IMG/VR virus record: IMGVR_UViG_2654587570_000002 | Span: 1-35,662 of that record | Reading direction: 5' to 3' (one strand) | Length of the DNA: 35,662 nucleotides | DNA from: a virus | Lineage: Duplodnaviria > Heunggongvirae > Uroviricota > Caudoviricetes | Shown here: one piece after another, positions 1 to 35,662 of the stretch | Layout: the number at the start of each line of letters is the position of its first letter | Numbering within the stretch: position 1 is the stretch's first letter | Notes under the pieces: model-generated | Told to the model about the DNA's origin: nothing | The model's input: the letters and a program-made list of their open reading frames with translations, nothing else | Databases searched by the model: none | Made by a program: the position numbers and the translations under genes

Positions 1-330
1 AGAATCAGATTAATGACGGCCCAGGCGGAAGCGCAGGAACTTAAAAACGAGCGCGAACGCGGCGAGGTGATTGATACAAAGTTTTGCATCTACGCGATTT
101 CAAAACTAGCGAGTCAGATTTCATCAATCATGGACAGCCTCCCGCTCACAATGCAAAGGCGCTTTCCCGATATAAGGCCGTATATGCTGGATGAACTAAA
201 AAGGGAAATAGCCAAAGCATGTAACGCATGTGCAAGACTTGACGAAAACCTGCCACAGATACTGGCTGATTACCTGATGGAAACTACCGGAAACGCGCCT
301 GAGAAGTTGCTACAGAACAAAGGCGAGTAA
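1..330 (+). CDS. Nu1-type terminase small subunit, C-terminal fragment (5' end lies outside window)
   Basis: Frame is open from base 1; translation ...AQAEAQELKNERERGEVIDTKFCIYAISKLASQISSIMDSLPLTMQRRFPD... resembles the C-terminal half of lambda gpNu1 as recalled; no adjacent large terminase gene follows. Confidence 0.6.
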   Translation, partial: RIRLMTAQAEAQELKNERERGEVIDTKFCIYAISKLASQISSIMDSLPLTMQRRFPDIRPYMLDELKREIAKACNACARLDENLPQILADYLMETTGNAPEKLLQNKGE

Positions 331-2273: not shown

Positions 2274-2628
2274 TTAGCACGTAGGAAATCATTCAATACT
2301 CGCACTATCGGAAGTTCACCAGCCAGTCGTAGCACGTCCTTGCAAACGACGTGCCTACAATTTCAATCACCTCTCACCATCAGTTCTATCAATAATAATT
2401 AAACAGCGCCTAGACAAAATAAATAACAACAAGTCAACAACCTCGACAGGATGCCGATGGGATGATGAAGAGATAAGAAAGAATAACCAGTAAAGCCCTA
2501 AAACGTCAGCGTTCAGACGCGTTTTTTACTTAACCGGTAACAAATACGTTGTATCATAGCAGAATAAAATGATTGTTCTAAATCAGATTAACTCCTCACT
2601 TTTGTACAATGTCGCTTACAGGTATACC

Positions 2629-4518
2629 ATGAAATCCGAGACGCTAACTGTCCAACAACTTTTTCAAGACCGCCGACAATACTGTGTTCCATTCTATCAA
2701 CGTGCCTATGTATGGACTCAGCAAGACCAATGGTCAGCTCTACTGGAGGATATCCTAGAGAAAGCACAATCCCGGCTCTCGGGTACAAAACCAACTCCCC
2801 ATTTCCTTGGTGCGGTTGTACTGGAACCTCAATCAAAAAAAGGATTATTAGGTGTAGATTCCATACATATTATTGATGGTCAGCAACGATTGACCACTCT
2901 TCAATATGTTCTGGCATCCATCCGATTAGCATTACGTGCTACGGATCTTTCCAGCTTAGAGGCTCTCATTTCGCCTTGCCTGAAAAACTCAAACGAAGAC
3001 ACAATGCGAAATAAAGAAGTAGAACGCTTCAAACTGTGGCCAACTTTTCGGGATCAAACTCATTTTATTCAAAGTTTTAATGTTGAAAATATTGACGATC
3101 TCCGGGACGTATTCTCTGATAGTTTCACGCAGCATGGTACGTTGCGTAAGCGTTTTAATCACCCGCCATCACTAGAAGCATTATGTTTTTTTACTAAAGC
3201 CTTTATAAAATGGATTAAAATAGAAAACCACTCACCACAAGAAAATGCTGTAGCTCTAATTGAGGCTGTCTTAACAGATCTGAAACTGGTAAGCATATTT
3301 CTCGAAGCTGAAGATGATGCCCAAATAATTTTTGAAACATTAAATGGGCGAGGGGCGGAACTTCATGCTACGGATCTTATTCGCAACTATATCTTTATGT
3401 GCGCAGAGCATGAAAATATTAATGCTATTGAATTATATGAAAATGAGTGGAAGAGCTTTGAAGATAAATACTGGTCGGAAAAACAACGCCGTGGACGTAT
3501 TAATAAACCACGCATGGAGTGGCTAGTACATGCGACATTGCAATCAGAAAGGCAGCGTGAAATTGATCTGTCTCGCCTTTACAATGAGTATCGTGATTAT
3601 GTAAGTAAGGACTTGTCTTCACAACGAGCAGATCTGCAAGTAAAGCGCCTCAAACAATATGCATTACAATATAAAGAATTGGTTGATGGTTTTGGCACAA
3701 CCCCCATCTCACACTTTGGATATCGCATCGCAGACTATGATGTGACGACACTTTATCCGCTTGCTTTGTTCATTTCGATAGCTAACATCGCTGATGATGA
3801 GAAAGCAGCCATGTATAATGATCTTGTCTCCTACGTAGTACGAAGAGCCGTATGTGGCCTGACGCCAAAGAATTACAACAATGTATTTATGAATGTATTG
3901 CGGCACTTGGCTAAAACGGAAATTTCCAGTGTTGAGTTACGTAATATCCTCAATAACTTAAATGGCGAAGCCTCACGTTGGCCTGGTGACTCAGAATTTC
4001 TCAACGCTTGCATCAATGCTCCACTTTATCCTGGCAGGCTCGACGCACCGAAAATGCGCTCAATGTTAACGGAACTTGAAAGAGAACTTTGTCGCCAAGT
4101 GAAGACCGAAAAGCCTGATGTTCCAAATCTTTCTAATCTCGATATCGATCATCTTATGCCCCAAAGTTGGTATTCCTGTTGGCCTCTCGAAAATGGTCGT
4201 ATGGTGACAAATTCAGATGCTACGGTATTGAACCAAATTGTTCTGTCTGGAACCGATCTTACCCCTGAACAGCTACTGGTAAGGAAACGGCAACAAGCGA
4301 TAGCTACTTTGGGAAATCTAACTTTGCTTAACCTTAGCGTAAACCGTTCTGTTCAGAATGCTGTATTTCTGAAAAAACGTGATGCTCTCATCGTCCACAC
4401 CAATCTACGACTGAACATTCCACTTATAGTTAAGGATAAATGGGATGAGGATGAAATCCTGGAGCGGGGTAAAAATTTGGGGGAAATTGCATTGAAAGTA
4501 TGGCCAAAACACGATTAA
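2629..4518 (+). CDS. GmrSD-like type IV restriction-type nuclease (N-terminal DUF262/ParB-like domain, C-terminal DUF1524 His-Me finger domain)
   Basis: N-terminal FYQRAYVW and IIDGQQRLTTLQ (DGQQR motif); C-terminal LDIDHLMPQSW (DxDH motif); roughly 40% GC against higher-GC tail genes; ORF track opens at 2569 but the ATG at 2629 (MKSETLTVQQLF) is the more typical family start. Confidence 0.8.
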   Translation: MKSETLTVQQLFQDRRQYCVPFYQRAYVWTQQDQWSALLEDILEKAQSRLSGTKPTPHFLGAVVLEPQSKKGLLGVDSIHIIDGQQRLTTLQYVLASIRLALRATDLSSLEALISPCLKNSNEDTMRNKEVERFKLWPTFRDQTHFIQSFNVENIDDLRDVFSDSFTQHGTLRKRFNHPPSLEALCFFTKAFIKWIKIENHSPQENAVALIEAVLTDLKLVSIFLEAEDDAQIIFETLNGRGAELHATDLIRNYIFMCAEHENINAIELYENEWKSFEDKYWSEKQRRGRINKPRMEWLVHATLQSERQREIDLSRLYNEYRDYVSKDLSSQRADLQVKRLKQYALQYKELVDGFGTTPISHFGYRIADYDVTTLYPLALFISIANIADDEKAAMYNDLVSYVVRRAVCGLTPKNYNNVFMNVLRHLAKTEISSVELRNILNNLNGEASRWPGDSEFLNACINAPLYPGRLDAPKMRSMLTELERELCRQVKTEKPDVPNLSNLDIDHLMPQSWYSCWPLENGRMVTNSDATVLNQIVLSGTDLTPEQLLVRKRQQAIATLGNLTLLNLSVNRSVQNAVFLKKRDALIVHTNLRLNIPLIVKDKWDEDEILERGKNLGEIALKVWPKHD

Positions 4519-4540
4519 TGCAATTAATAAAATGATTATA

Positions 4541-4564
4541 GCGGCCTTACCTTAGTAAGGCCGC
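4541..4564 (+). terminator. stem-loop just 3' of the GmrSD-like gene
   Basis: gcggcctta-ccttag-taaggccgc, a perfect 9-bp stem 23 bp after the stop; weak T-tract. Confidence 0.4.
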
Positions 4565-4613
4565 TACTCACTATTAAATACTTTAATTTGCATCAAGAAC
4601 AGCAATGTCAGCC

Positions 4614-4742
4614 CTAGGTCTCGGACTTTGTACCGCTTATCTTGTTTTCAAAAATCAGCTCGCATCCTGCACAGTTCAGCGCATTACGTTGTAGATCTGT
4701 GTTCTGGTCATTTGTTGATACGCGTACATAGCCAATAAGCAT
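4614..4742 (-). pseudogene. Gin/Pin/Hin-family serine invertase gene, N-terminal 41-codon remnant
   Basis: Minus-strand translation from ATG at 4742: MLIGYVRVSTNDQNTDLQRNALNCAGCELIFENKISGTKSET-stop; matches the invertase N-terminus (catalytic-Ser VRVST motif) as recalled, then similarity ends abruptly. Confidence 0.8.
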
Positions 4743-4768
4743 GGTAGATCCCCCTGACAAAAGCAGGA

Positions 4769-5182
4769 ATGATGCCATTTGCTCGTTATTTCTGCATTTT
4801 CATAAACGTTGGTTTGGGAGAAGCAGCAAAACGAGGGGTGGGGACAGGGGAAAATCAGATACCGGACATGACCTCTTTTGCCAGTGGTGATGGATGGATG
4901 AAATTACCCAACGGGAAAATCCTGCAATATGGTCGAGGTGAGGCTATGCCGAAATTATCGACGCAAACAATGAGGATTACATTTCCTATCCCTTTCCCTA
5001 AAAAAGCGGATATCGCCATTCTTACCCATTCTGGCGATGGCGGTGCGCCTTTTGGTGCAGGGCGTGGATTCGTTATGTCCGTAGAAGGCCCAACATTAAC
5101 CGGCTTTAATTCTGCTTACAGAACTGCATCAACCAGCGACAAGGTGTCAATGACTTACAGTTGGTGGGCTGTTGGTGAATAA
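4769..5182 (+). CDS. alternative tail-fibre C-terminal variable domain (silent cassette in present orientation)
   Basis: Shares VGLGE at the crossover site with the constant part and would be in frame with it after inversion; no independent start expected (the ATG at 4769 lies outside the crossover site). Confidence 0.6.
   Translation: MMPFARYFCIFINVGLGEAAKRGVGTGENQIPDMTSFASGDGWMKLPNGKILQYGRGEAMPKLSTQTMRITFPIPFPKKADIAILTHSGDGGAPFGAGRGFVMSVEGPTLTGFNSAYRTASTSDKVSMTYSWWAVGE
4797..4822. repeat. hix/gix-like crossover site (left end of invertible segment)
   Basis: TTTTCATAAACG-TT-GGTTTGGGAGAA; the last 14 bp are identical to the reverse complement of the site at 6717-6742. Confidence 0.65.
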
Positions 5183-5193
5183 TTTTATTCAGG

Positions 5194-5646
5194 ATGATTT
5201 ATATGAACGAATATGTTTATAGCGCAAGGCATAATGCTTTTTTCCCTGTGGATATGATTGATAAATATAAATCAGAGGGATGGGATTTATCAGATGCTAA
5301 GGAGGTGAGTCAAAATATTATCAGTGAATTTATGGCTGAACCGCCACAAGGAAAAATCCGTATTGCCGGAGGTGATGGGCTGCCCGCGTGGGCGGATATT
5401 CCTGCCCCTACGCATGAAGAACTTACTGAAATTACTGAATCAGAAAGACAGCTACTAATTAATCAGGCCAACGATTATATGAACAGTAAACAATGGCCTG
5501 GTAAAGCCGCTATTGGTCGTCTGAAAGGTGACGAACTGGCGCAATATAATTTGTGGCTGGATTATCTGGACGCACTGGAGCTGGTTGATACCTCCAGTGC
5601 TCCAGATATTGAATGGCCTACGCCTCCGGCAGTTCAGGCCAGATGA
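5194..5646 (+). CDS. tail fibre assembly protein (Tfa/U'-like), silent cassette
   Basis: C-terminal ...LVDTSSAPDIEWPTPP, the characteristic Tfa ending. Confidence 0.75.
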   Translation: MIYMNEYVYSARHNAFFPVDMIDKYKSEGWDLSDAKEVSQNIISEFMAEPPQGKIRIAGGDGLPAWADIPAPTHEELTEITESERQLLINQANDYMNSKQWPGKAAIGRLKGDELAQYNLWLDYLDALELVDTSSAPDIEWPTPPAVQAR

Positions 5647-6220
5647 CATCCGGCGCGGTGCTGGTATCTGTTGCCGTCACCGCGTCAGTGTAATCCAGCA
5701 CGGCGTTAAGTCGGGTGTTTTCTGCCTGCGTCAGCTTCCTCCCGGCCTGCAATTTCAGTTGAATCAGACTAATGGAAACCATTGCAGCATCAATCAGCGA
5801 CTGCCGCTGTGTTTCTGCCATGTCTACTGCTGCTCTATGCTGTGCCTCGGTATCCGTCACCCATTTCTCACCATCCCATTTATCGTATGGCGTTAACGGG
5901 GCGATAGTGGTTGTCTTTTCAGGGTAATCACCCGGAGCTGTGATTTCTTTTGATTCTCCTGTTTCGGTGCTATAGACGATTTCACCGCGATGGTCTGGCA
6001 CATATTCCCATGAGTTAAAATCTGCAGAACGGCAAATTGCATAACCAGCTTTATATGAGCCAGGAGCATCTAAACAGGAACATGCCGGGATACCGACACC
6101 CACAGCAAGATATTCGGTTGATGTGGAAATATATTCTCGTGTTTCACCATCATAATTATAAACGGTAATATCTCCCGCCTTTGTGGCGATGAGTTCCTTA
6201 TTTAATATAGCTTTATCCAT
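5618..6220 (-). CDS. tail fibre assembly protein (Tfa/U-like)
   Basis: Strong resemblance to lambda Tfa as recalled (EYVPDHRGEIVYSTETGE..., ...DTSTAPDVIWPELP). Confidence 0.8.
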   Translation of the reverse strand: MDKAILNKELIATKAGDITVYNYDGETREYISTSTEYLAVGVGIPACSCLDAPGSYKAGYAICRSADFNSWEYVPDHRGEIVYSTETGESKEITAPGDYPEKTTTIAPLTPYDKWDGEKWVTDTEAQHRAAVDMAETQRQSLIDAAMVSISLIQLKLQAGRKLTQAENTRLNAVLDYTDAVTATDTSTAPDVIWPELPEA

Positions 6221-6696
6221 CAGGCAGCCCTCACGATATAATTAAAGGCAATGTTACGGGGTCGATTTTCGTTTGCAGTTGGAACAATTCTTGAAGCATC
6301 AAGGCCAATCACTTTTGGGTAAACACCGCCCTCGGACCTTTCTGTCACCATACTTCTGACTAAGGAGAAATAACTATTGTTCGTTGAGGGGTTCAAAGGC
6401 ACCACTGCCCCCTTAAACGAGCCTACTGATTCCCATATTGAATAATTTTCGGTGTTTACAGTCTTGAACTCACCATAGATATTACGTATGGCATCGCCCT
6501 GAGCGGATAATATTGTTCTCCCCGCATCCGCACTACGCCCATCATCCCAGCCACGAATAAATTCACCGCGTAAATCAGGCAATTTATTTGTCGGGTAAGC
6601 CTTTGCCAGTTCCGGGTATTCTTCAGCAGAAAAAGCCGCACCATTGCATTTCAGCCAGCCTGTCGGCGGAGTGGCGGAAGGCCACGGAACAGGCAC
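6220..6696 (-). CDS. tail-fibre C-terminal variable domain with phage tail-collar motif; currently in the -1 frame relative to the constant N-terminal part
   Basis: [35 protein letters not shown]...LPDLRGEF fits the tail-collar domain pattern; track start is a GTG; frame differs from ORF 6651-7019. Confidence 0.7.
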
Positions 6697-7019
6697 ACCG
6701 CAGGTAATGCAGAGCCTTCTCCCAAACCAAGGTTTTCGAGAGCCGTTTTCACCGTGCCATCCGATTTGATATCACCAAACGGATTCTTGCGGCTTAACAG
6801 CAGAGCACGAAGCGCGGTAAGCAACTGGTCGTTTCGCCCCTTCTCCAGGCTGGCACCGGATGCCTCCACCACGCTGCAAAGCTCCTCCTGCAACATATCA
6901 AAGTAGTCATCATCCAGATCGGTGGCAGGTGTGCCGGTCTGGGGGTTACCACGGGTAAAACCGTTCTTACCCGCGCCGAACTTATCCTTCTGCGCGGTTT
7001 TCGTGTCTATACGATGCAT
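6651..7019 (-). CDS. tail fibre, constant N-terminal part (terminates 20 codons past the crossover site in this orientation)
   Basis: [46 protein letters not shown]... resembles Mu S / e14 Stf N-termini as recalled; ...LENLGLGE spans the crossover site. Confidence 0.7.
6717..6742. repeat. hix/gix-like crossover site (right end, inside the tail-fibre gene)
   Basis: + strand TTCTCCCAAACC-AA-GGTTTTCGAGAG; compare hixL TTCTTGAAAACC-AA-GGTTTTTGATAA as recalled. Confidence 0.65.
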
Positions 7020-7607: not shown

Positions 7608-8656
7608 GAAATCGCCCCCAGAACCGCCAGCTCATTTTTCGCAATGGTGATATTGTCCGCCGGTGCAAGCAACTGATGGCTGTATTCCCCGTTCGCACCG
7701 GAAATCGCTTCACTGATACGTGACACCTTCAGTTCTCCCTGCGGATAACCATCACGCAGCAGGAACGAACGCAACTCCGCGGTGATGGCAGCCCGTATTT
7801 CCGGTGTGTCCGGCGTCACACGGATATGAAAATCCACCGTATGTGCCACCGGCCTGAACACATACAAATCAGAGCCTGCCACCGGGGCCAGTGGCCCGAT
7901 ATGTTGTCTTGCCGCCGTTTCCGTTGATTCTTCCGGAATGGGATTAATCAGGTCACTGCTGGCAATCATCACACCGACAGTCCCCGTTCCCATCCAGTGT
8001 CGGTATGTCCATGCGCGGGTAATGCCAGGCACTTCTTTAGCCCAGACGACATAGTCCCCGTCAGCCCCGCCCTGCGGCGTCCAGTAATACCGCTCAATGA
8101 CGCGGGCGCGCCACGTTTCCAGCTCTTCAGTATCAAATCCGCCTGTCAGGGTGTCAGCCACACCGGAAGACGGCAGACCATTCACCGGCGTGACCAGGAT
8201 TAATGCCGTACCGTCGTCAGCGTTACCGACCGCACCTGCACTTGAGCAGGCGATCGGCACGCGCAGGACACCACCGGAGCTGATTGCATCGTCAGTTGTC
8301 GTGTACTGCACCAGGTCATCGCGCTGAATAACACTCCCGGCAGTCACCTTCAGGCCATCGCTGACACCTTCCCAGCGCATATACCCGCTGGCAACCGTGG
8401 CACCCTTGCGCGGACACCGTTTCATCGCAGCATGTCGCGCCAGCCAGGACTCATCGCACAGGTCAGGCAGCATATTCATTGCCAGATAATCGATGTAACC
8501 GTAGACCGTATGCAGCGCCGCCGCATACACCTTTGCCCGCACGTCTTCATCCATGCGCCGGAGCGTGTCGCTGACGTCCAGCCTGGCGAATAAATCGTTA
8601 CGGAGCATACTGATATTTTCTGCCAGCGTCGGGCGCTGAAATTCACTGTCCGCCAT
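7598..8656 (-). CDS. baseplate J-like protein (Mu gp47-like)
   Basis: Size 352 aa, synteny and sequence character of the baseplate J family. Confidence 0.75.
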
Positions 8657-26459: not shown

Positions 26460-27249
26460 TTATTTCCCCACCAGTTCACTTACCTCTTTCACTGTCTGGT
26501 TAAACCGATCTGACTCAAGCTCAACACCTAACGCCCGACGCCCCAGCTCCATTGCTGCTTTTATTGTGGAACCAGATCCCATAAAAAAATCAGCAACCAG
26601 ATCACCTGGTCGACTACTGGCATTGATTATTTGCCGGAGCATATCCGCCGGTTTCTCACACGGATGTTTACCCGGGTAGAACTGAACGGGTTTATGCGTC
26701 CAGACATCGGTATAAGGCACGGAGACTGATACGGAGAAATAGCGCCGGAGAGATTTAAACTCATCCAGCAATTCAGAATATTTGCGATTCAGTGAATCAT
26801 AAGATGCCACCAGCTGGTGGTGTGTCTGTTCCAGTTGTTGTTCCTGAAACTTCTCTGCCGCTATACGGGAAAACAGTGCCTGCAACTTCCGGTAGTCAGC
26901 CTCATTCGGCAACTGCCACTGACTGGCACCAAACCAGTGGGAAACCATGTTTTTCTTACCAGTGTTCACGCATCATGATCTCGATATCAGATGCCAGGCG
27001 ATGTCCACAGAACAGGTAAAGGCTTCCGGCAGGTTTCAGCACCCGCCAGAACTGAGCCAGACAGTGGTCCAGCCACTTAAGGTAATCTTCGTCCCCTTTC
27101 CACTGATTGTCCCAACCGTTGGGCTTCACTTTGAAGTACGGCGGATCGGTAACTATCAGGTCAATGGAATCATCAGGCAGGGACTGAATAAAATGCAGGC
27201 AATCAGCGTTGATTAAATCAACACTGTTTATTTTTACAGTATTTTTCAT
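26460..27249 (-). pseudogene. beta-class DNA methyltransferase (motif IV DPPY then motif I FxGxG), split into two ORFs by a frameshift
   Basis: ORF 26956-27249 has IDLIVTDPPYF; ORF 26460-26969 has DLVADFFMGSGSTIKAA; the two overlap by 14 nt in different frames. Confidence 0.65.
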
Positions 27250-34466: not shown

Positions 34467-35141
34467 ATGAAAACAATCCATGACATCCGGCGGTCTAACG
34501 CCAGAAAACTGAGAGATGGTGTTGGCGGGAATTCTTCCTTTGCCACTATGATTGATCGCGAGCCAACCCAGACCAGCAGGTTTATGGGAGATGGTGCTAC
34601 TAAAAATATCGGTGACAGCATGGCACGACACATCGAAAAATGTTTCGACCTGCCTGTCGGATGGCTCGATCAAGAACACCAGACAACGAACATCACAAAA
34701 AAACCTGATGTTTCAATCACTAATAAACAAATCACATTAGTCCCTGTCATATCATGGGTACAGGCCGGAGCATGGAAAGAAGTTGGATATTCTGAGGTTG
34801 ATTTGAGCACAGCAGAAACGTATCCCTGCCCTGTACCCTGTGGGGAAATGACTTATATCTTGCGGGTGATAGGTGATTCAATGATTGATGAGTACCGCCC
34901 GGGAGACATGATTTTTGTCGATCCTGAAGTACCTGCCTGCCACGGTGACGACGTTATTGCATTGATGCACGATACAGGTGAAACCACCTTCAAAAGGTTG
35001 ATAGAAGATGGGACACAGCGTTATCTCAAAGCGTTAAACCCAAACTGGCCTGAGCCTTACATTAAGATCAACGGTAATTGCTCTATAATTGGTACAGTGA
35101 TTTTCTCAGGAAAACCAAGAAGATACAAAATCAAAGCCTAA
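34467..35141 (+). CDS. CI-like repressor (HTH plus S24 LexA-like autopeptidase domain)
   Basis: C-terminal LRVIGDSMIDEYRPGDMIFVD...TTFKRL (Ser/Lys dyad context); N-terminal HTH. Confidence 0.85.
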   Translation: MKTIHDIRRSNARKLRDGVGGNSSFATMIDREPTQTSRFMGDGATKNIGDSMARHIEKCFDLPVGWLDQEHQTTNITKKPDVSITNKQITLVPVISWVQAGAWKEVGYSEVDLSTAETYPCPVPCGEMTYILRVIGDSMIDEYRPGDMIFVDPEVPACHGDDVIALMHDTGETTFKRLIEDGTQRYLKALNPNWPEPYIKINGNCSIIGTVIFSGKPRRYKIKA

Positions 35142-35334: not shown

Positions 35335-35658
35335 ATGAAAGTCCAGATTTTAAACAATAACTGTGAAGTCGTTTGGTCATACGACATAGCCGCCCCTGTA
35401 GATCAGAGCGGCGATAGCTGGACCAATGAGAAACATCAGATTATGGCTGGAGTTGTGTTCTCTTTACGCCGTGCTTTGGAACAGGCTGAAGTATTTCCAT
35501 CAGACCCTGAATGGAAATGGCCTTTTTCTATTTGCCCAAATTCGGAGAACACATTTCAGAAAATTGGTCAGAAAGTCGGTAATGACTCCAACTTATTGAT
35601 AGTGTTTTATGTTCAGATAATGCCCGATGACTTTGTCATGCAGCTCCACCGATTTTGA
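35335..35658 (+). CDS. hypothetical protein, first gene downstream of the PL-like promoter
   Basis: ORF 35314-35658 in track; ATG at 35335 (MKVQILNNN...) preferred; not Arg-rich so not an obvious N-type antiterminator. Confidence 0.4.
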   Translation: MKVQILNNNCEVVWSYDIAAPVDQSGDSWTNEKHQIMAGVVFSLRRALEQAEVFPSDPEWKWPFSICPNSENTFQKIGQKVGNDSNLLIVFYVQIMPDDFVMQLHRF

Positions 35659-35662
35659 GAAC

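Follow-up and report, generated by a model that had tools for sequence, protein, structure and literature searches.

Introduction

In the G segment of phage Mu (invertase Gin; S/U and S′/U′) and the C segment of P1 (invertase Cin), the constant N-terminal part of the tail fiber is encoded outside of the invertible DNA, while two cassettes of opposite orientation, each combining a fiber C-terminus with its chaperone, are placed inside, the whole being adjoined by a gene of serine invertase and equipped with 26-bp inverted crossover sites. Gin, Pin, Cin, and Hin reportedly substitute for one another, a finding ascribed to Plasterk and van de Putte. The P region of e14 in E. coli K-12 has the gene order ymfQ, stfP, tfaP, tfaE, stfE, pinE, and mcrA, and it was demonstrated experimentally that its P segment is inverted in trans by PinQ of prophage Qin (Kirigo et al., PMC12529663). 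Another group of relatives is represented by phages SfV, SfI, SfII, and SfIV, which combine a Mu-like tail with an HK97-like head; in SfV, one non-invertible fiber gene and its chaperone are followed by gtr genes. Frameshifted fiber genes of prophages, truncated invertases, and Pin enzymes acting in trans are all already known. Here, we describe a locus in which these features meet. The window, that is the whole analyzed stretch of 35,662 nucleotides, carries the tail end of an SfV-like prophage with a Mu-type contractile tail and an e14/Mu-type invertible fiber segment. Very probably, this segment has lost one T, which left it with one dead cassette, and its adjoining pin gene has been truncated, while inversion still goes on and the flipped phase is intact.

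Results and Discussion

Organization of the invertible segment and its closest relatives

The features of the fiber locus are as follows, listed from the constant fiber part toward the end of the prophage.

6730–7019, minus strand: Sc, the constant fiber N-terminus, outside of the segment; 91–95% identical to the N-terminus of the “short tail fiber” orf21 in SfV, SfI, SfII, and SfIV
6651–7019, minus strand: truncated fiber ORF of 122 aa, comprising 106 native and 16 out-of-frame residues before the stop
6717–6742: pixR, Pin/Gin-type crossover site of 26 bp, TTCTCCCAAACCAAGGTTTTCGAGAG, with the AA center at 6729–6730
6700–6701, minus strand: site of the 1-nt deletion, CCTG^CGG, where homologues read CCTGT[C/T]GG (Pro-Val-Gly); 29 nt inside the invertible segment
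6220–6716, minus strand: variable cassette 1, tail-collar (PF07484), the receptor-binding C-terminal part, out of frame with Sc
5618–6220, minus strand: TfaE-type tail fiber assembly protein (Caudo_TAP) for cassette 1
5203–5646, plus strand: second tail fiber assembly protein (Caudo_TAP) for cassette 2, 147 aa according to the public record
4772–5182, plus strand: variable cassette 2, Gp53-like_C (PF21882), now proximal to pin; ORF of 136 aa
4797–4822: pixL, crossover site of 26 bp, reverse complement TTCTCCCAAACCAACGTTTATGAAAA
4614–4742, minus strand: remnant of 42 codons from the serine invertase gene pin; residue 41 (...GTKSE) is the last one homologous to K-12 PinE (184 aa)
2569–4518, plus strand: GmrSD-family type IV methyl-directed restriction enzyme of 649 aa, located in place of the 3′ part of pin

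The constant N-terminus is thus situated outside of a segment with two opposed C-terminal cassettes, each of which is supplied with its own chaperone. Both pix sites read TTCTCCCAAACCAA(C/G)GTTT... with AA in the center and lie in inverted orientation, the inverted-repeat arms of 20 nt being 95% complementary. For e14, PMC12529663 quotes an inverted repeat that is identical to the core of these sites. The stop codon of cassette 1 and the start codon ATG of the following gene overlap (TGATG), the leader of the cassette 2 ORF (MPFARYFCIFINV) is encoded outside of the segment, and the genes to the right of Sc are homologues of Mu gp48, gp47, gp46, gp45, and gp44. Apart from the deletion, both cassettes join Sc in frame through GLGE. 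Inversion performed in silico between the centers of the 26-bp sites gives an in-frame fiber of 220 aa, composed of Sc and the Gp53-like part, which exactly reproduces the public protein P0031 (100% identity) found on at least 10 contigs; the proposal of an earlier note on this DNA that the cassette from 4811 onward comes into frame after inversion was therefore correct.

With respect to K-12 e14, the window matches the P region in order and sequence: the two loci have near-identical Sc N-termini and one and the same crossover core (TTGGTTTGGGAGAAG), and both combine a tail-collar cassette and its TfaE with a gp53-like cassette that has another chaperone, a type IV restriction gene following beyond pin. 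The differences concern pin, which has 184 aa in e14 and 42 aa in the window, the restriction gene (McrA and GmrSD, respectively), the gp53-like cassette with only 27% identity, and the collar cassette, which has the 1-nt deletion in the window. Besides, e14 is a remnant, whereas the prophage of the window is a nearly complete SfV-like genome. The Mu G and P1 C segments follow the same logic, but in the window the cis-encoded invertase is inactivated and one of the cassettes has become a pseudogene, so that the switch alternates between a working and a broken fiber rather than between two host ranges, and an on/off switch of the fiber replaces the host-range switch. SfV, SfI, SfII, and SfIV share about 97% nucleotide identity with the window over 58–81% of positions 7000–31900. 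In SfV, the Mu-like tail proteins are full-length matches with 97–100% amino acid identity and the N-terminus of orf21 is 95% identical to that of the fiber, in contrast to the portal, the major capsid protein, and the head-tail adaptor with 25–62% identity; at the place of its single non-invertible fiber, the window has the two-cassette module, the pin remnant, and GmrSD. Phage vB_EcoM-689R6 was considered as a virion-derived reference for the fiber, but its record is rearranged at the fiber locus and proved uninformative.

A single lost base splits the tail-fiber gene

Read on the minus strand from 7019, the fiber ORF comprises 122 aa, with the stop codon at 6653–6651, while the tail-collar reading continues to 6220 with an offset of 2, i.e., in the −1 frame relative to the fiber ORF, exactly where the earlier note had located a frame break (6651–6720). 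Addition of one base in silico yields a protein of 266 aa. The Pfam scan assigned the Phage Tail Collar domain to the downstream ORF and gave no domain for the 122-aa product. If intact fibers naturally ended at 122 aa and the variable protein was initiated separately, the break would be only apparent; homologues, however, are single fused proteins of 266 aa. A separate start of the 158-aa tail-collar ORF at GTG 6696 was also considered, and it is unlikely because the closest purine-rich stretch (GAAGG) is found 18 nt upstream, outside of the normal Shine-Dalgarno spacing; a stand-alone collar product of this kind would, moreover, be devoid of the Sc attachment domain. ORFs 7019..6651 and 6696..6220 are a single tail-fiber gene split by a genuine 1-nt deletion, and annotation should flag them as a pseudogene, neither as two proteins nor as an assembly error.

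When aligned to its two closest homologues from E. coli, the window shows a one-base gap, with CCTG-CGGTGTG opposed to CCTGTCGGTGTG or CCTGTTGGCGTA. Since CCTGT[C/T]GG is read in eleven homologous loci, among them stfE of K-12 e14 and relatives with at least 99.9% identity (the eleven include a set of seven independent loci with K-12 stfE), the missing base is a T between 6701 and 6700, and the junction with this T would be CCTGTCGG instead of CCTGCGG. The context of the deletion, CTG^CGG, is not a homopolymer. With the repair suggested previously, a single G added to the GG run at 6698–6699, the frame is restored as well, although the ancestral base is different: the added G produces Pro-Ala-Gly in place of Pro-Val-Gly, the homologues having T one or two bases upstream and Val rather than Ala. 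In the lineage of the window, the T was lost from a GTC codon for Val, which is located seven codons within the tail-collar cassette.

Occurrence and inheritance of the deletion

The junction is present in about 1,330 of 5,426 complete RefSeq E. coli genomes. Among the best 30 of these approximately 1,330 genomes, all with full- or near-full-length matches, none matched the deleted junction exactly and each was one base longer, which indicates that the deletion is rare and lineage-specific. The window corresponds to contig JHTB01000045.1 of GCA_001266275.1, homologues and cluster names point to Escherichia coli, and besides this contig the deletion allele was found in four more assemblies. JZXF01000199.1 (GCA_002075125.1) encodes the identical 122-aa product and differs from the window by 3 SNPs over 9.3 kb aligned without gaps (99.97% identity); the CCTGCGG allele is also present in the complete chromosome CP164306.1, in JBFOBC010000002.1 (locus L018), and in JHSV01000071.1 (L021). 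The exact 122-aa product is recorded in Logan assemblies of sequencing runs as well. The T and an intact gene are retained in relatives with at least 99.9% identity (ERR7658295, ERR12083264, ERZ27237999, and GCA_024479565.1). The intact 266-aa fiber was found in L012, at the same level of at least 99.9% identity, and in L013, which is 98.3% identical. With the intact allele seen at at least 99.9% identity in L012, L017, L019, and L020, and the lesion in five assemblies, the inactivated fiber, which the earlier note had listed among its explanations, is a real and inherited lineage-specific 1-nt deletion.

In the orientation of the window, the fiber ends after 122 aa and lacks the receptor-binding domain; adsorption is presumably lost in this phase. 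As tfaE starts at the old stop (TGATG), its translational coupling is probably lost, and under-expression of TfaE through polarity is likely in the same phase. The lesion would kill one of two phases, the flipped one encoding the intact 220-aa Gp53-like fiber together with its own chaperone.

Inversion in prophages devoid of their own invertase

The pin remnant retains the N-terminus of the Resolvase domain alone (profile positions 2–47 of 145), and with 42 codons left, no functional serine invertase gene is adjacent to the segment. The reduction of pin to 42 aa results from its replacement by the GmrSD restriction gene. Nevertheless, genomes with truncated pin are encountered in both arrangements. 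For IHE3034 and SF-173, the flanks (3,542 and 2,282 nt) are 100% identical, while the 1,939 nt enclosed by the pix sites are inverted, with 99.9% identity. L018 and L021 are at least 99.98% identical, with no gaps, to the window inverted in silico; both have the T deletion in the cassette located beside the pin remnant and the intact Sc plus Gp53-like fiber P0031 in the expressed position. The allele with intact T also exists in both orientations (L012 compared to L017, L019, and L020). For a chimeric query built to represent the flipped arrangement, 68 complete genomes gave matches covering at least 80% of the query, and the best 25 of these 68 span the query almost fully and are annotated in the order DUF262, truncated recombinase, and tail fiber. 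Both orientations are thus documented in relatives of this strain, and inversion was repeated within a sequence divergence of 0.1% or less in prophages without an invertase of their own.

The coexistence of both orientations among near-identical prophages with truncated pin points to an invertase acting in trans. As the simplest mechanism, the segment is presumably flipped by a Pin-family invertase from elsewhere, which for this strain is deduced from its relatives; inversion would then persist owing to the enzyme of another prophage. This is similar to the P segment of e14 flipped by PinQ in that the invertase is encoded elsewhere, although for e14 it was shown experimentally (PMC12529663), whereas the evidence for the window comes from comparative genomics alone. 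In principle, both orientations could reflect homologous recombination between prophages, against which stand the coincidence of the breakpoints with pix repeats and the identity of the flanks. The retained part of pin covers its first 123 nt, which are situated about 190 bp from the center of pixL and share 93% identity with an intact pinE, and by analogy with hin and gin, a Fis-dependent enhancer may persist in it.

Alternative explanations of the broken fiber

An indel of sequencing or assembly, with T present in the true DNA and the fiber intact, was one of the explanations offered earlier, and the fact that a draft contig differs by one base, together with the absence of the deleted junction from the best 30 of about 1,330 complete RefSeq genomes, might seem to speak for it. 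The deletion, however, recurs in five separately deposited assemblies (JHTB, JZXF, CP164306.1, JBFOBC, and JHSV), including two chromosome-scale sequences, namely a 5.09-Mb record and a 5.30-Mb contig; these assemblies differ by a few SNPs and contain the segment in both orientations, the 122-aa product is recovered exactly in Logan assemblies, and CTG^CGG offers no homopolymer to be miscalled. Five separate assemblies, the SNP differences between them, and the intact sister allele make an artefact extremely improbable. Just as little credit can be given to recoding, by which a programmed −1 ribosomal frameshift or transcriptional slippage would produce the full-length fiber from the broken gene. 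The 0 and −1 frames do overlap by 121 nt, and this overlap contains a single heptamer of the X_XXY_YYZ type, T_TTG_GGA at 6726–6720. Such heptamers with G in the Y position make poor slip sites, and the given one, being a part of pixR, is shared by all of the in-frame homologues. Folding of the 90 nt downstream is no better than that of shuffled sequence (z = −0.67), the scan found all homopolymers to be of 4 bases or fewer, and the plainly in-frame state of relatives with at least 99.9% identity argues that there is no conserved recoding signal. With one weak heptamer, no significant structure downstream, and homologues in frame, the translational frameshift supposed in the earlier note finds no convincing trace in the scans of heptamers and homopolymers or in the folding.

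Two other readings concern the fate of the locus rather than the reality of the deletion. The segment might be frozen, with pin destroyed and the prophage locked in the orientation of the dead fiber as a cryptic element without a tail fiber. The reduction of pin to 42 aa, the orientation of the window repeated in three assemblies with the deletion, and further decay in the form of the broken methyltransferase gene and IS1 at the contig end are in line with such an outcome. It is nevertheless highly unlikely, because the deletion allele itself is flipped in two assemblies with at least 99.98% identity, the intact allele is known in both orientations, and IHE3034 and SF-173 differ by inversion alone in spite of truncated pin. 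Hence, the cis-encoded invertase is indeed truncated, but the frozen segment proposed earlier does not hold in practice, as both alleles occur in both orientations among near-identical relatives, and a truncated invertase gene does not imply a locked switch, since prophages without pin still flip the fiber segment, its two orientations being seen at a divergence of 0.02% or less. Alternatively, inactivation might have been selected by the host, so that the locus acts as a host defense island composed of GmrSD and a StfE2-like leader-Gp53 protein, for which loss of the collar fiber is neutral or favored. K-12 StfE2 blocks adsorption of phage T2 according to a 2025 paper, and ORF 4772–5182 shares the StfE2 architecture, i.e., the leader MPFA(R/C)YF(C/F)IFINVGLGE and the gp53-like domain, and is adjoined by the type IV restriction gene. 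However, the Gp53-like domain is 27% identical to K-12 StfP/StfE2, no PADLOC match was obtained, and the data bear no sign of selection; the other structural genes, as assessed for this alternative, are intact and 97–100% identical to SfV proteins, which does not look like long domestication. Recruitment of the locus in this form is accordingly rated as very unlikely.

We therefore favor inactivation of one cassette in a segment that is still switched from outside, which is ordinary prophage decay and needs no new mechanism. As a side observation, the pin-proximal cassette 4772–5182 (plus strand) can be read as a stand-alone 136-aa ORF, the leader of which (MPFARYFCIFINVGLGE) originates from outside of the segment. 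It is conceivable, albeit improbable, that the invertase-less P segment, kept switching by the invertase of another prophage, serves the host as a phase-variable defense module; if so, the orientation of the window would express the StfE2-like leader-Gp53 protein beside GmrSD, the tail-collar fiber of the phage would be dispensable, and its frameshift would be tolerated or favored.

The slot beyond pin

The GmrSD gene is located directly beyond the pin remnant on the opposite strand, at the place occupied by mcrA in e14, and the junction of the pin remnant with GmrSD is widespread in complete genomes (for example, SFE8, SF-173, and IHE3034). Comparison of window positions 2569–4742 with L001, L009, and L013 showed that the cargo beyond pin varies: GmrSD in the window, McrA in K-12 e14, a KAP P-loop NTPase in PRO_A-1443, and a LEM-3-like GIY-YIG protein with a DNA methylase in GCA_012603115.1. 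This slot looks like an exchangeable defense hotspot at the end of the prophage, and in its GmrSD version, the swap took away the 3′ three-quarters of pin. Another arrangement was noticed in L015 (Logan ERR3181900_294, 4449–5606), where the tail-collar cassette follows the window with 99.9% identity as far as pixR, and beyond pixR a full-length resolvase/HTH_7 gene of 190 aa stands in place of the constant fiber part. This may represent a second Pin locus and an inter-prophage inversion or else an assembly mis-join, and this locus is one candidate for the origin of the invertase acting in trans.

State of the rest of the prophage

Outside of the fiber locus, the nucleotide match to SfV has 81% coverage and 96.6% identity, and all 20 SfV head and tail proteins except the fiber gave full-length matches in a single frame. 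Terminase, head, sheath, tube, and tape-measure genes and the baseplate genes homologous to Mu gp44–48 are collinear, each as a single HSP. The prophage is SfV-like and mildly decaying, with one dead cassette in a Pin/e14-type switch. Its second pseudogene is the homologue of the SfV orf48 DNA methyltransferase (26460–27249, minus strand), which is split into parts of 97 and 169 aa, both assigned to N6_N4_Mtase; SfV residues 98–183 are missing and the frame is changed. A scan of the window for tRNA genes found none.

IS1 was encountered twice in this material. The last 86 nt of the window (35577–35662) match an IS1 end, with 98.8% identity to the IS1 in L018, so that the contig probably breaks at IS1 just beyond cI (34467–35141). 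In L018 (JBFOBC010000002.1, 1669–2437), IS1 is inserted within the gp46/gp47 baseplate region, and the matches of its flanks to the window overlap by 9 nt (8575–8583), which is a further decay of the lineage. At the opposite edge of the window, the 105-aa ORF at 13–330 (plus strand) matches the C-terminal half of lambda Nu1 (profile 91–162 of 164), and this similarity to the small terminase suggests a remnant of another lambdoid prophage beside the prophage end.
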